From a virus (Duplodnaviria; Heunggongvirae; Uroviricota; Caudoviricetes): a DNA stretch of 29,870 bases. Shown piece after piece: positions 5,498-11,190 of this stretch. The translations under genes were made by a program, and so were the position numbers. Each line of letters starts with the position of its first letter. Position 1 is the first letter of the stretch. Below the pieces are notes generated by a model. It was given only the letters and a program-made list of their open reading frames with translations, did no database searches and was not told the DNA's origin. The stretch lies in IMG/VR virus record IMGVR_UViG_2695420871_000012. One strand, given 5' to 3'.

Positions 5498-5937
5498 ACT
5501 TTGCCCTCAGACTGGCGCGTGAGATGGGGAGACCCGACTGGCGCGCCATGCTTGCCGGGATGACATCCACCGAATATGCCGACTGGCACCGTTTTTACCG
5601 CACGCATTATTTTCAGGATACCCAGCTGGATATGCATTTTTCCGGGCTGACGTACGCTGTACTCAGCCTGTTTTTTTGCGATCCGGATATGCATCCCTCT
5701 GATTTCAGTCTGCTTGTCCCCCGGCATGAGGAAGAGCAGGTGGAGAGGCCGGATGAGGACAAAATGCTGATGCAGAAAGCGGCAGGACTTGCCGGAGGCG
5801 TCCGGTTCGGTGGGGACGGAGGGCGCGATATTTTATCGTCTGCGGATGTGGCGGATGTCATGGTGGATGATGCCGCATTAATGATGGCTTCAGCGGGGAT
5901 TCCGGGAGGTGTGAGATATGTCCCAGCCGGTTGGTGA
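5066..5937 (+). CDS. GT: G-T tail assembly chaperone fusion produced by programmed -1 ribosomal frameshift at GGGAAAG (5473-5479)
   Basis: The -1 frame after the heptamer is open to 5937 and encodes VFDGELNFAL.LAREMGRPDWRAMLAGM.STEYADWHRFY, matching the lambda gpT region. Confidence 0.75.
5473..5479 (+). promoter_or_regulatory. Slippery heptamer G_GGA_AAG for the G/GT -1 programmed frameshift
   Basis: Heptamer in the zero frame of G (codons GGA AAG) at the position expected from lambda. Confidence 0.7.
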
Positions 5938-8491
5938 TCTTGTTATTGACCTGAGTCTGGATGCTGTCCGTTTCGATGAGCAGATGAGCCGGGTAAGGCG
6001 TCATTTTTCAGGTCTGGATACCGACGCCAGAAAAACCGCCAGTGCTGTTGAACAGGGCCTGAGCCGCCAGGCGCTGGCTGCACAAAAAGCCGGGATTTCC
6101 GTCGGGCAGTATAAAGCGGCCATGCGAACCCTGCCCGCACAGTTTACGGATATCGCCACGCAGCTTGCCGGTGGTCAGAATCCCTGGCTGATCCTGCTGC
6201 AACAGGGCGGTCAGGTGAAGGACTCCTTCGGCGGGATGATCCCCATGTTCAGGGGGCTTGCCGATGCGATCACCCTGCCGATGGTCGGGGTCACCTCGCT
6301 GGCGGTGGCGACAGGTGCACTGGTGTACGCCTGGTACCAGGGAGATTCCACGCTTTCAGCGTTTAATAAAACCCTGGTTCTTTCCGGTAATCAGTCCGGA
6401 CTGACTGCCGATCGTATGCTGACTCTCTCAAGAGCCGGGCAGGCAGCAGGGCTGACGTTTAACCAGGCGAGAGAGTCACTGGCAGCCCTGGTGAATGCCG
6501 GTGTGCGTGGTGGTGAACAGTTTGATGCCATCAACCAGAGTGTCGCGCGTTTTGCGTCTGCATCCGGTGTGGAGGTGGATAAAGTCGCTGAAGCCTTCGG
6601 GAAGCTGACCACTGACCCGACGTCGGGACTGATGGCGATGGCGCGCCAGTTCCGTAACGTGACGGCAGAGCAGATTGCGTATGTTGCACAGCTGCAGCGT
6701 TCCGGAGACGAGGCCGGGGCATTGCAGGCGGCGAACGATATCGCCACGAAAGGCTTTGATGAGCAGACCCGTCGCCTGAAAGAAAACATGGGAACACTGG
6801 AGACCTGGGCGGATAAAACAGGGAAGGCATTCAAATCGATGTGGGATGCCATTCTGGATATCGGTCGTCCGGAATCCTCAGCGGATATGCTCGCCAGTGC
6901 GCAGAAGGCATTTGATGAGGCGGATAAAAAATGGCAGTGGTACCAGAGTCGGAGCCAGCGCCGCGGTAAAACCTCCTCTTTCCGGGCCAACCTTCAGGGC
7001 GCATGGGATGACCGGGAAAATGCCCGTCTGGGTCTGGCAGCGGCAACGCTGCAGTCGGATATGGAAAAAGCCGGTGAACTGGCGGCAAGGGACAGGGCTG
7101 AGCGTGAGTCGTCACAGCTGAAGTATACCGGAGAGGCGCAGAAGGCGTATGAGCGCCTGCTGACGCCACTGGAGAAATATACCGCCCGGCAGGAAGAGCT
7201 GAATAAGGCCCTGAAAGACGGGAAAATCCTGCAGGCGGATTACAACACGCTGATGGCGTCGGCAAAAAAGGATTATGAGTCGACGCAGAAAAAGCCGTCC
7301 GGTGTGAAGGTGTCTGCCGGTGAGCGCCAGGAAGACCAGGCGCATGCAGCCCTGCTGGCGCTTGAAACTGAGCTCAGGACGCTGGAGAAGCACAGCGGTG
7401 CGAATGAAAAAATCAGCCAGCAGCGCCGTGATTTATGGAAAGCGGAAAATCAGTATGTGGTCCTGAAAGAGGCCGCCACGAAACGGCAGTTATCTGAGCA
7501 GGAAAAATCCCTGCTGGCCCATGAGAAAGAAACGCTGGAGTACAAACGCCAGCTGGCTGAGCTGGGCGACAAGATTGAACACCAGAAACGGCTGAATGAG
7601 CTGGCACAGCAGGCGGCGCGGTTTGAACAGCAGCAGAGCGCGAAGCAGGCGGCAATCAGCGCAAAAGCCCGCGGACTCACCGACCGTCAGGCGCAGCGGG
7701 AGTCGGAAGAGCAGCGCCTTCGTGAGGTGTACGGTGATAATCCGGCTGCGCTGGCGAAGGCCACATCTGCACTGAAGAACACCTGGTCTGCGGAGGAGCA
7801 GCTTCGTGGAAGCTGGATGGCCGGGATGAAGTCCGGCTGGGGCGAGTGGGCGGAAAGTGCGACGGACAGTTTTTCGCAGGTTAAAAACGCGGCCACGCAG
7901 ACCTTTGACGGTATTGCACAGAATATGGCAGCGATGCTGATCGGCAGCGAACAGAACTGGCGTGGTTTCACCCGTTCTGTGCTGTCCATGCTGACAGAGA
8001 TTTTTCTGAAGCAGGCGATGGTGGGGATAGTCGGGAGTATCGGCAGCGCCATTGGCGGTGCTTTCGGTGGTGGTGCGTCTGCCTCCACGGGGACGGCCAT
8101 TCAGGCTGCGGCGGCGAACTTCCATTTCGCGACCGGGGGATTTACGGGGACGGGGGGTAAATATGAACCTGCGGGGATTGTTCATCGCGGGGAGTTTGTC
8201 TTCACGAAGGAGGCGACCAGCCGGATTGGTGTCGGCAATCTGTACCGCCTGATGCGGGGCTATGCGGAAAGTGGTTATGTCGGCGGTGCCGGAAGTCCGG
8301 CGCAGATGCGGCGGGCGGAAGGCATTAATTTTAATCAGAACAATCACGTGGTGATTCAGAACGACGGCCCCAACGGGCGGGCAGGGCCGCAGCTGATGAA
8401 AGCGGTGTATGAGATGGCCCGCAAGGGGGCACAGGATGAACTCCGGCTGCAGTTGCGTGATGGCGGTATGTTATCAGGGAGCGGTGGATGA
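5918..8491 (+). CDS. H: Lambda H-like tail tape measure protein
   Basis: 857 aa (lambda gpH is about 853 aa); position between GT and M; start overlaps the T frame. Confidence 0.9.
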   Translation: MSQPVGDLVIDLSLDAVRFDEQMSRVRRHFSGLDTDARKTASAVEQGLSRQALAAQKAGISVGQYKAAMRTLPAQFTDIATQLAGGQNPWLILLQQGGQVKDSFGGMIPMFRGLADAITLPMVGVTSLAVATGALVYAWYQGDSTLSAFNKTLVLSGNQSGLTADRMLTLSRAGQAAGLTFNQARESLAALVNAGVRGGEQFDAINQSVARFASASGVEVDKVAEAFGKLTTDPTSGLMAMARQFRNVTAEQIAYVAQLQRSGDEAGALQAANDIATKGFDEQTRRLKENMGTLETWADKTGKAFKSMWDAILDIGRPESSADMLASAQKAFDEADKKWQWYQSRSQRRGKTSSFRANLQGAWDDRENARLGLAAATLQSDMEKAGELAARDRAERESSQLKYTGEAQKAYERLLTPLEKYTARQEELNKALKDGKILQADYNTLMASAKKDYESTQKKPSGVKVSAGERQEDQAHAALLALETELRTLEKHSGANEKISQQRRDLWKAENQYVVLKEAATKRQLSEQEKSLLAHEKETLEYKRQLAELGDKIEHQKRLNELAQQAARFEQQQSAKQAAISAKARGLTDRQAQRESEEQRLREVYGDNPAALAKATSALKNTWSAEEQLRGSWMAGMKSGWGEWAESATDSFSQVKNAATQTFDGIAQNMAAMLIGSEQNWRGFTRSVLSMLTEIFLKQAMVGIVGSIGSAIGGAFGGGASASTGTAIQAAAANFHFATGGFTGTGGKYEPAGIVHRGEFVFTKEATSRIGVGNLYRLMRGYAESGYVGGAGSPAQMRRAEGINFNQNNHVVIQNDGPNGRAGPQLMKAVYEMARKGAQDELRLQLRDGGMLSGSGG

Positions 8492-9525: not shown

Positions 9526-10269
9526 ATGACACAGACTGAATCAGCGATTCTGGCACATGCCCGGCGGTGTGCGCCTGCGGAGTCGTGCGGCTTCGTGATA
9601 AGCACGCCGGAGGGGGAGCGGTATATCCCTTGTGTGAATATTTCCGCAGAGCCGGAGGCGTATTTTCGTATCGCACCGGAAGACTGGCTGCGGGCAGAGA
9701 TGCAGGGGGAGATTGTGGCACTGGTCCACAGTCATCCCGGTGGGCTGCCCTGGCTGAGCGAGGCTGACCGGCGGTTGCAGATAAAAAGCGCACTGCCCTG
9801 GTGGTTGGTCTGCCGGGGTGACATTCACAAATTCCGCTGTGTGCCACATCTGACAGGACGGCGCTTTGAGCACGGGGTGACGGACTGTTACACGCTGTTC
9901 CGGGATGCTTATCATCTGGCGGGGACTGAAATGCCGGATTTTCATCGCGAGGATGACTGGTGGCGCAACGGTCAGAACCTTTACCTGGACAATATGGCGG
10001 TCACCGGCTTTTACCGGGTGCCCCTGTCCTCTGCACAGGCGGGCGATATTCTGCTGTGCTGCTTTGGTGCTTCGGTACCGAACCATGCCGCCATTTACTG
10101 CGGCAACGGTGAGCTGCTTCACCATCTGCCTGAACAACTGAGTAAACGGGAGAGGTATTCCGAAAAATGGCAACGACGAACGCATTCAGTCTGGCGTCAC
10201 CGCCACTGGCACGCATCTGCCTTCACGGGGATTTACAACGATTTGGCCGCCGCCTCAGCCTGTATGTGA
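9526..10269 (+). CDS. K: Lambda K-like tail tip assembly protein (JAMM/MPN motif HSHPGGLPWLSEAD plus NlpC/P60-like Cys-His domain)
   Basis: Start MTQTESAIL at 9526 inside the longer ORF 9265..10269; JAMM H-x-H-x7-S-x2-D motif; 103-nt overlap with I, as in lambda. Confidence 0.85.
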   Translation: MTQTESAILAHARRCAPAESCGFVISTPEGERYIPCVNISAEPEAYFRIAPEDWLRAEMQGEIVALVHSHPGGLPWLSEADRRLQIKSALPWWLVCRGDIHKFRCVPHLTGRRFEHGVTDCYTLFRDAYHLAGTEMPDFHREDDWWRNGQNLYLDNMAVTGFYRVPLSSAQAGDILLCCFGASVPNHAAIYCGNGELLHHLPEQLSKRERYSEKWQRRTHSVWRHRHWHASAFTGIYNDLAAASACM

Positions 10270-10847
10270 ACACGGCAGCGGAAGCCATTCGCGCCCTGTC
10301 GATGCAGATGCCGGGCTTTCGCCGTCAGATGAACGAAGGCTGGTACCAGATACGTATTGCCGGTTATGACACGGCACCGGAGGCGGTGTACGCCCGTCTT
10401 CACGAACAGCTGGGTGAGGGAACGGTCATCCACATTGTGCCGCGACTGGCCGGGGCCGGAAAGGGTGGACTGCAGATTGTGCTGGGGGCGGCAGCCATCG
10501 TGGGCTCTTTCTTCACTGCCGGGGCATCAATGGCGTTATGGGGTTCAGCCCTGGCAGCCGGTGGTTTTTCTGCCACCACGATGCTGTTTTCACTTGGAGC
10601 CAGCATGATTCTGGGCGGTGTGGCCCAGATGCTGGCCCCGAAGGCAAAAACACCGGATTACCGCGCAACGGATAACGGCAGACAGAACACGTACTTTTCC
10701 TCACTGGATAACATGATTGCCCAGGGGAACCCGATGCCGGTGCCTTACGGGGAAATGCTGGTTGGCTCCCGCCGTATATCCCAGGACATCAGCACCCGTG
10801 ATGAAGGCGGGGGCGGAAAGGTCGTGGTTATCGGGCGGCAGGGGTAA
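10167..10847 (+). CDS. I: Lambda I-like tail tip assembly protein
   Basis: 226 aa; conserved ARICL.GDLQRFGRR and hydrophobic Gly/Ala-rich segment; YFSSLDNM.AQGN. Confidence 0.85.
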   Translation: MATTNAFSLASPPLARICLHGDLQRFGRRLSLYVNTAAEAIRALSMQMPGFRRQMNEGWYQIRIAGYDTAPEAVYARLHEQLGEGTVIHIVPRLAGAGKGGLQIVLGAAAIVGSFFTAGASMALWGSALAAGGFSATTMLFSLGASMILGGVAQMLAPKAKTPDYRATDNGRQNTYFSSLDNMIAQGNPMPVPYGEMLVGSRRISQDISTRDEGGGGKVVVIGRQG

Positions 10848-11056
10848 AAAGAATAAAAAAATCCCGCAGTGATCGCGGACAGGAACTGCGGGAGAGTTAC
10901 GAAGATTAAGTGTAAGGAATTATTCTTATATCACGACAAAAAAATTAACGCAGAGAAATTATACGCGCCACAGTCAGTTTGTGAAAATGTGAAGATATTC
11001 AGAATTTTTATGCCATTACCGGTTTTAACCAACAGGATTATCGGTGGGCATGAAAG

Positions 11057-11093
11057 AAAACCCCGGTATCTGCTGATACCGGGGTTTCTCTTT
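11057..11093. terminator. GC-rich stem-loop (CCCCGGTATC/GATACCGGGG) flanked by T-runs on both strands; candidate bidirectional rho-independent terminator inside the I-J insert
   Basis: Perfect 10-bp stem, 4-nt loop, followed by TTTCTCTTT on plus and TTTTCTTTC on minus. Confidence 0.45.
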
Positions 11094-11190
11094 AGCATGG
11101 CAGAAATGTGTTTCATGCTTTTCGGGCGAAGGATATCCGACTTCTGTACGGAATGGCAAGTGGCGGTTAATTTATTCAGGGGAAGGCTGT

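Follow-up and report, generated by a model that had tools for sequence, protein, structure and literature searches.

AgvB, AsxR and HnrS of enterohaemorrhagic Escherichia coli (EHEC) are short Hfq-binding small RNAs (sRNAs) of lambdoid prophages that are expressed in lysogens, are often present in multiple copies and have established targets (GcvB, FnrS and hha) (PMC4104026, PMC13502914). Tree et al. (2014; PMC4104026, Table S2) also listed EcOnc22, EcOnc23 and EcOnc24 in prophages Sp15, Sp14 and Sp11, respectively, of E. coli O157:H7 Sakai, where all three were detected as Hfq-crosslinked peaks and EcOnc22 gave a northern band of about 85 nt that was destabilised in a delta-hfq strain. These RNAs also crosslink to RNase E, as found by sequencing hybrids after crosslinking and ligation (CLASH; Waters et al. 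2017, PMC5286369), and a 2021 review (PMC7873438) enters the target of the family as unknown. In Salmonella, prophage BTP1 encodes the antisense RNA STnc6030, which excludes superinfecting relatives (Owen et al. 2020, PMC7067206). Here we describe the AT-rich spacer between tail genes I and J (positions 10848-11190) of a lambda-like prophage in IMG/VR record IMGVR_UViG_2695420871_000012; the whole 29,870-nt stretch that was analysed is referred to as the window. Judged by homology, the minus strand of this spacer carries a divergent, unannotated allele of the published but uncharacterised Hfq-binding EcOnc22/23/24 family.

A predicted antisense sRNA locus and its Sakai relatives

The spacer is bounded by the stop codon of I (TAA, 10845-10847) and the start codon of J (ATG, 11191). 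Its 343 bp compare with a gap of 60 bp in lambda, and its GC content of 0.37-0.38 (over 10850-11074) compares with 0.57-0.62 in I and 0.61-0.64 deeper into J, which bears out the description of an AT-rich insert in the initial annotation, a model's reading of the sequence made before this analysis. The spacer is a mosaic of an I-proximal module (10848-11011), which holds the sRNA locus, and a J-linked module (11012-11190).

The RNase E-CLASH hybrids (PMC5286369, Table EV7) print the EcOnc22/23/24 halves as GCCTGAAAAATAACTCCATAACGTTAATCTTCA, a sequence that equals nt 17-49 of the RNA that we predict on the antisense strand of the Sakai Sp15 spacer, and this match fixes the identity, strand and position of EcOnc22/23/24. 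On NC_002695.2 all three sites were I-J spacers, mutually identical between Sp11, Sp14 and Sp15, with the RNA on the strand antisense to the tail genes. Published Sakai positions use NC_002695.1, for which we derived an offset to NC_002695.2 of +136 from the 5' and 3' ends of StxS (PMC7547250) and of about +139 from AgvB1; in the 1.94-2.93 Mb region, the positions that the Tree, Waters and Sy papers give are lower by 135-139 bp than in NC_002695.2. With the offset applied, the Hfq peak falls within the RNA predicted from the Sp15 spacer. A location of this peak on the J-proximal hairpin of the Sakai spacer, as Table S2 positions would suggest at face value, was rejected as an artefact of the +135/136 offset between NC_002695.1 and NC_002695.2.

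To place the window allele relative to this family, a covariance model (R1) was made from 10 aligned alleles of types other than that of the window, including EcOnc22, with the terminator as its sole structure, and the whole window was searched unfiltered. R1 gave a single match across the 29.9 kb, at 10855-10951 on the minus strand and at full model length (68.9 bits, E ~1e-10). The Sakai loci scored 96 bits, and R1 had no match in lambda or in the I-J junctions of Enterobacter, Rahnella, Pantoea and Pseudocitrobacter. The window allele was 74% identical to EcOnc22 of Sp15. The 20 alleles compared share the -10 element and the GCGUUA 5' end; within the RNA they keep a U-run, an (ARN)3-5 motif at nt 21-29 and UNAAUCUU, and at its 3' end the terminator stem of 7 bp with the U-tail. 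Allele sequences vary outside these elements. As a set, these kept features fit an Hfq-dependent sRNA.

The predicted sRNA gene (10855-10951, minus strand) is preceded by a putative sigma-70-type promoter (10985-10958, minus strand; TTCACA-16 nt-TATAAT) that matches 11 of 12 consensus positions and has an expected transcription start near 10951. In the alignment, the -10 element of other alleles reads TATAAT, AATAAT or TATCAT. The predicted intrinsic terminator (10892-10855, minus strand) adjoins the I stop codon and consists of a 7-bp stem (10886-10892 with 10863-10869), a variable loop, an A and U7 (10861 to 10855); on the plus strand, CCCGCAG (10863-10869) pairs with CTGCGGG (10886-10892) and A7 (10855-10861) stands before it. 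A hairpin with this stem had been recognised from the start, although with coordinates (10870-10899) about 7 nt to the right of its true position of 10863-10892, and it folds better than shuffled sequence (-17 kcal/mol, z = -3.8; none of 200 shuffles equal). Its stem was invariant in all 12 alleles compared, its loop varied, and the consensus structure across alleles was this terminator alone, the rest of the RNA being without conserved structure. Promoter and U7-bearing terminator together predict an RNA of 97 nt (10951 to 10855), against the northern band of about 85 nt for the Sakai family, with a GCGUUA 5' end, an AU-rich unstructured body, the terminator hairpin and a U7 tail. The body contains an (ARN)3 motif, AAGAAUAAU, and a CUUCC/UUAAUCUUC stretch, and its single-stranded part includes an anti-Shine-Dalgarno-like UUCC/CUCC stretch.

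The locus is thus very similar in plan to EcOnc22/23/24: it occupies the same I-J spacer site beside the I stop codon, lies on the same strand, antisense to the tail operon, and has the 5' motif, the invariant terminator stem with U7 (the Sakai EcOnc22 locus carries the same terminator), the ARN motif and a similar length. It differs from the Sakai loci in a much better promoter, in the single-stranded body and in its J-linked module, which is another, longer one, in a spacer of 343 bp compared with 240 bp in Sakai. The suggestion in the initial annotation that the spacer is a small moron or a structured small-RNA locus in the tail operon agrees with this allelic relationship, with the predicted promoter and terminator and with the foreign composition of the DNA, but the RNA is predicted on the minus strand, and it is the first, weaker hairpin, rather than the strong one at 11057-11093, that would terminate it. 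An Rfam scan of the spacer, which had been proposed as a check, returned no family at gathering level (best sub-threshold scores of 15-20 bits against thresholds of 39-315), and a full-text literature search with the hairpin sequences returned no papers.

Among the better characterised prophage sRNAs, AgvB, AsxR and HnrS resemble the window locus as short RNAs of lambdoid prophages with an intrinsic terminator, ARN motifs, a conserved 3' part and a variable pairing region. Their sequences are different ones, AgvB and AsxR lie downstream of PR', HnrS (EcOnc10-12) lies at other late-gene positions, and their targets are established. An assignment of the locus to AgvB or AsxR was rejected because those lie downstream of PR', and one to HnrS was rejected since HnrS corresponds to EcOnc10-12. 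STnc6030 is likewise a prophage RNA made in the lysogen and antisense to late structural genes, but it is longer than 700 nt and overlaps coding sequence, whereas the window RNA would be about 97 nt long and lies in a non-coding spacer.

Terminator-like hairpins ahead of J

The second hairpin of the spacer (11053-11093) lies 98 nt ahead of the J start. Its core is a perfect 10-bp stem (11060-11069 with 11076-11085), lengthened by A/U and G-C pairs to 11053-11093, and U-rich tails follow on both the plus strand (TTTCTCTTT, UUUCUCUUU) and the minus strand (TTTTCTTTC, UUUUCUUUC). The perfect stem and the tails on both strands had been described correctly in the initial annotation; as a "GC stem" it was overdrawn, with four of the ten pairs being AU and six GC. 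Folding energies were -27.1 and -26.0 kcal/mol (z = -7.1 and -7.7), equalled by none of 200 shuffles. A stable GC-rich stem-loop with a U-rich tract directly after it is what defines an intrinsic terminator, and by these features the hairpin is predicted to be an ordinary, though unusually strong, two-way terminator. Termination or attenuation of transcription before J, as first proposed for this locus, is plausible from the same features.

In 1442 E. coli records the J-linked module (11012-11190), hairpin included, precedes the same J 5' end without exception; as its identity is at least 99% in all of them, comparison yields no covariation. In two related loci with 307-bp spacers (L034 and L094) a precise deletion of 47 bp, flanked by short AGAAA direct repeats, has removed the hairpin, consistent with slippage across a palindrome. 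Directly 5' of the terminator hairpin is an imperfect long stem-loop (11007-11054, plus strand), and the region 10990-11098 on the plus strand folds at -43.9 kcal/mol (z = -7.1). On the minus strand, the region 11045-11123 folds at -32.2 kcal/mol (z = -6.6) and is preceded by a weak promoter-like site (11159-11130, TTGCCA-18 nt-TATCCT) with 9 of 12 consensus matches; from these elements, a second antisense RNA of about 72 nt is a speculative prediction. The remainder of the module is the J leader (11094-11190, plus strand), which has a Shine-Dalgarno (SD) sequence, AGGGGAAGG, at 11178-11186 ahead of the ATG and co-varies with the J allele.

Other spacer types have a sense terminator of the form CAGGCAYCC...GGRTGCCTG followed by TGTTTTT, 41-51 nt before J, in which we found a compensatory C-G to T-A change between alleles. 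One hairpin of the Sakai I-J spacers is CAGGCACCC...GGGTGCCTG. The 60-bp gap of lambda (L100, 15445-15504) contains AAACCGCC-TGCG-GGCGGTTT followed by TGTCATTT, and prophages of Enterobacter, Rahnella and Pantoea have sequence-unrelated hairpins with T7 right before J. Since lambda and distant prophages carry one too, such a pre-J sense terminator is common to lambdoids in general, and a sense-strand terminator-like hairpin at this place is not peculiar to the window insert. In all of these the hairpin lies shortly before J and its structure is kept while its sequence differs; that of the window is stronger, works in both directions by prediction, lies 98 nt rather than 0-50 nt before J and is unrelated in sequence. 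Across lambda and six further loci of distant enterobacterial lambdoid prophages (L011, L012, L014, L015, L017 and L018) a terminator-like hairpin with a T-run directly before J is kept in position, with unrelated sequences, and we know of no described function for it.

Spacer types, cargo and prophage setting

The 343-bp spacer had matches in 1662 of 5426 complete E. coli genomes (~30%), often in several copies. It is 100% identical in many E. coli genomes, for example that of ATCC 25922 (NZ_CP009072, 3960539-3960881), and the spacer or its I-proximal half is also found in phages, including Stx1a, Stx2a and Stx2c converting phages. None of 633 records with the spacer at 99% identity or more has it annotated; the Prokaryotic Genome Annotation Pipeline (PGAP) leaves the spacer blank. 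Comparison of I-J junctions of related prophages, another of the checks first proposed, was carried out on 81 loci encoding a close I protein and gave 37 distinct spacers of 246-915 bp. These are mosaics of a common I-proximal module, a near-invariant block and then one of several unrelated J-linked modules. In the window this block (AATGTGAAGATATTCAGAATTTTTAT, 10986-11011) lies just upstream of the -35 element of the sRNA promoter, at the point where spacer types diverge, and is probably the recombination joint of the I-side and J-side modules. A derivation of the block from the lambda gap was dropped, as alignment of the 60-bp gap to the spacer gave scattered matches alone.

The term "moron" (Juhala et al. 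2000, quoted in PMC4104026) is used for DNA that lies between conserved phage genes, is absent there from related phages, brings a promoter and a terminator of its own and deviates in base composition. The window spacer is longer than the corresponding gaps of lambda (60 bp) and of more distant prophages in Enterobacter, Rahnella and Pantoea (42-54 bp), where R1 found nothing; its base composition is deviant, and a promoter and terminator are predicted within it. The low GC content, this promoter and terminator and the presence of other cargoes at the junction fit the moron concept. Between the sRNA module and J, two spacers of 863 and 915 bp (L056 and L090) hold an antisense-strand cassette with its own two-way terminator and with sodC, the gene of a periplasmic Cu,Zn superoxide dismutase. 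Lambdoid morons such as these sodC cassettes resemble the window insert in being extra DNA with its own promoter and terminator and deviant composition, and sodC lies at exactly the same junction and on the antisense strand; the window cargo is no protein gene but a predicted RNA of about 97 nt. In the L056 type the promoter region of the sRNA is replaced and the sRNA body lies 3' of the sodC terminator. Two loci from Pseudocitrobacter and Enterobacter (L010 and L013) have an insert of 580-630 bp with a sense, lipoprotein-like ORF (open reading frame; MKKYGLVLLGGLLISACAPQ...) ahead of the conserved hairpin and T-run. Contigs labelled Streptomyces flavalbus, Parendozoicomonas haliclonae and two metagenome-assembled genomes (Geobacteraceae and Clostridiales; L007, L009, L012 and L016) carry E. 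coli/Enterobacter lambdoid tail genes, at 91-98% identity for three of the four, and are probably contaminated assemblies.

The window comprises the late region of a lambda-like prophage, with H (5918-8491), M, L, K, I (10167-10847) and J (from 11191), after which come a lom-like gene (14710-15309) and, from 15461, a tail-fibre gene. J (11191-14642) is a pseudogene, broken by an in-frame TGA at 11392-11394 (AV*RAGEQEQ in the window, VVFRAGEQEQ in lambda) and again near 13101-13107 by a frameshift. Intact gpJ genes of E. coli come closest at 98.4% identity, and over 10100-14700 they exceed the window sequence by about 22 bp. Further downstream, CssrB, a Shigella sRNA, occurs together with a truncated IpaH-like gene that has leucine-rich repeat (LRR) and novel E3 ligase (NEL) domains. 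With J broken twice and CssrB and the IpaH-like gene downstream, the prophage is cryptic and defective and its host probably of Shigella type. A perfect 2,089-bp inverted repeat (17300-19388 and 22554-24642), containing the tail-fibre 3' end and two tail-fibre-assembly genes, encloses a 3,165-bp segment with a tail-fibre-like ORF, the IpaH-like LRR/NEL gene (20644-21588, minus strand), CssrB (21716-21895) and a methyltransferase ORF, and a second perfect inverted repeat of 447 bp occurs at 16883-17329 and 20220-20666. This arrangement could reflect inversion, duplication or an assembly artefact. In the window, Rfam matches at gathering level were CssrB (230 bits), IS009 (129 bits, 25822-26025) and, on the minus strand, C4 antisense RNA (76 bits, 29276-29363) and isrK (72 bits, 29387-29461); the last two lie next to each other, as in P1/P7-type immunity and anti-Q regions.

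Possible functions of the spacer and competing explanations

We consider it likely that the spacer is a moron-like insertion that combines a minus-strand sRNA gene of EcOnc22 type with a strong two-way terminator. The insertion would have entered an ancestral short I-J gap, its I-proximal 135 bp forming an autonomous sRNA gene. Transcription would start near 10951, constitutively, from the near-consensus sigma-70 promoter and end at the CCCGCAG/CTGCGGG hairpin and U7 beside the I stop codon, to give an AU-rich RNA of about 97 nt. For the window allele we infer expression, Hfq binding, terminator function and every regulatory role. By analogy with Sakai, the RNA may bind Hfq through its U7 tail and (ARN)3 motif and act by base-pairing through its single-stranded body. 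It might pair in trans with mRNAs or sRNAs of the host, in the manner of AgvB, AsxR and HnrS, or with the exactly complementary stretch of late tail mRNA between I and J, in the manner of STnc6030. The strong terminator would replace the weaker pre-J sense terminator of other lambdoid phages; most likely it would stop RNA polymerase unmodified by Q from entering J-lom-stf and, in the reverse direction, keep antisense transcription out of the sRNA promoter, and late transcription modified by Q would read through it.

By analogy with STnc6030, the sRNA could be an allele-specific antisense governor of the tail operon that lowers J synthesis and excludes close relatives, with a second RNA perhaps encoded by the J-linked module, although we rate this as rather unlikely. 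Being exactly complementary to 97 nt of the I-J late mRNA and constitutive in the lysogen, the RNA could cause late transcripts of same-allele phages, whether incoming or induced, to be cleaved. A second RNA from 11012-11190, either the minus-strand sRNA of about 72 nt or a plus-strand 3'-end fragment (11007-11054 with the terminator) ending at 11093, is itself a rather unlikely product of the spacer. Points in its favour are the promoter-like site (9 of 12 matches), folds that are very stable on each strand (z = -6.6 and -7.1), the U-rich tails of both strands and a sequence that is almost perfectly conserved in 1442 records. This conservation may merely reflect recent spread with one J allele, however; the hairpin was deleted in two loci with no other change, no Rfam family matched at threshold (best STnc310, 19 bits against a gathering threshold of 40), and neither a consensus scan nor manual inspection predicted a plus-strand promoter in the spacer for a sense sRNA ending at 11093. 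It is decidedly unlikely that the spacer has no function of its own and serves as a recombination linker between tail-shaft and host-range modules, with terminators left over from lost cargo such as sodC and the RNA as noise. Such a linker would agree with the switch of mosaic types at the conserved block 10986-11011, with the two-way terminator of the sodC cassettes at the same place and with an sRNA that has no known target. It would not account for the retention of the -10 element, 5' end, ARN motif and terminator across alleles that differ by 25-30% elsewhere, for a Sakai RNA abundant enough for northern blotting and for crosslinking to Hfq and RNase E, or for a locus kept in about 30% of complete E. 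coli genomes.

Two overlapping ORFs, at 10869-11210 (plus strand, 113 aa) and 10931-11215 (minus strand, 94 aa), are present as originally listed, and the doubt expressed about them at that point was largely justified. The minus-strand ORF traverses the hairpin and the sRNA promoter and gained no support. Within the plus-strand ORF we read the remnant of a sense ORF of about 40 codons (10899-11014), which in the window starts with ACG and has lost its stop through the module switch, hence the long 113-aa frame. In several alleles, including Sakai, this ORF is intact at 39-41 codons (MKINVKELF...NVKIFRNFIPS), with a GGAG-type SD in the hairpin and a stop just before the sense terminator. The functional element might therefore be a sense protein of about 40 aa of the late operon, decayed in the window, with the antisense RNA as a by-product or regulator; this is an unlikely reading. 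Indels between intact copies are multiples of 3, variable sites in the first 10 codons lean to position 3, and the ratio of nonsynonymous to synonymous polymorphism (pN/pS) is mostly 0.4-0.7 (0.4-1.2 among intact copies), which speaks for such a protein. Against it, some pairs reach 1.0-1.2, the window type and several other alleles begin with ACG or ACA, codon 23 is a stop in the commonest allele, frameshifts in A-runs affect others, and the C-terminal frame is lost in L077-type alleles. Neither the spacer ORFs nor the intact 39/41-aa versions had a match in Pfam, and their PHROG matches were all non-significant (E >= 0.1). A search of 5.8 billion proteins gave 4 clusters, all from E. coli, and the blank PGAP annotation and the lack of a predicted plus-strand promoter also count against a protein. 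Neither intactness across alleles nor purifying selection, which would mark a small protein-coding gene, was found, and a coding role for the sense ORF is possible but weak. The RalR/RalA pair of the rac prophage offers a comparison for a further reading, in which the ORF and the Hfq-dependent antisense RNA form a type I toxin-antitoxin-like pair that stabilises the prophage or aborts infection. Overlap of the antisense RNA with the SD and the ~17 initial codons of the ORF would suit such a pair, as would the Hfq dependence of the Sakai RNA. The pair is nevertheless highly improbable: a hydrophobic helix is lacking in the peptide, most copies of the ORF are disrupted, those of the two most frequent alleles among them, no promoter is predicted for the ORF, and the literature offers no support.

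Several points weigh against the interpretation of the spacer as an insertion with an EcOnc22-type sRNA gene and a strong terminator. A scan found no consensus promoter at the Sakai allele, and the RNAmotif screen of Tree et al. (PMC4104026) flagged no Rho-independent terminator for EcOnc22-24. As the terminator stem never varies, the structure of the sRNA has no covariation support. With a body about 26% different from that of EcOnc22, the RNA may, if it has targets, have others than EcOnc22; CLASH (PMC5286369) gave 1-2 hybrid reads per partner, among them the ECs5028 and ECs5349 mRNAs, with weak statistics, so that trans-regulation is still putative even in Sakai. Variation where the overlapping sense ORF begins falls on third positions, which hints that part of the conservation of the sRNA region could come from coding on the other strand. 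The two related loci without the strong hairpin indicate that it is dispensable, and with J broken twice the prophage is defective, so any phage-directed role is moot in the present host.

The sRNA family itself is known from Sakai, and the spacer adds a divergent allele, not a new kind of element. With this allele, the EcOnc22-24 family gains a precise gene model (promoter, 5' end and terminator) that can be annotated, for example as an Rfam seed. The I-J junction is marked as a recurrent cargo site, with an sRNA, sodC and a lipoprotein-like ORF. Were the sRNA to govern the tail operon in an allele-specific way, rivalry among phages would explain why alleles diverge by 25-30% while their promoter, Hfq and terminator signals stay fixed. 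The family is not a speciality of O157, but a general cargo of lambdoid tail operons that occurs in several alleles.

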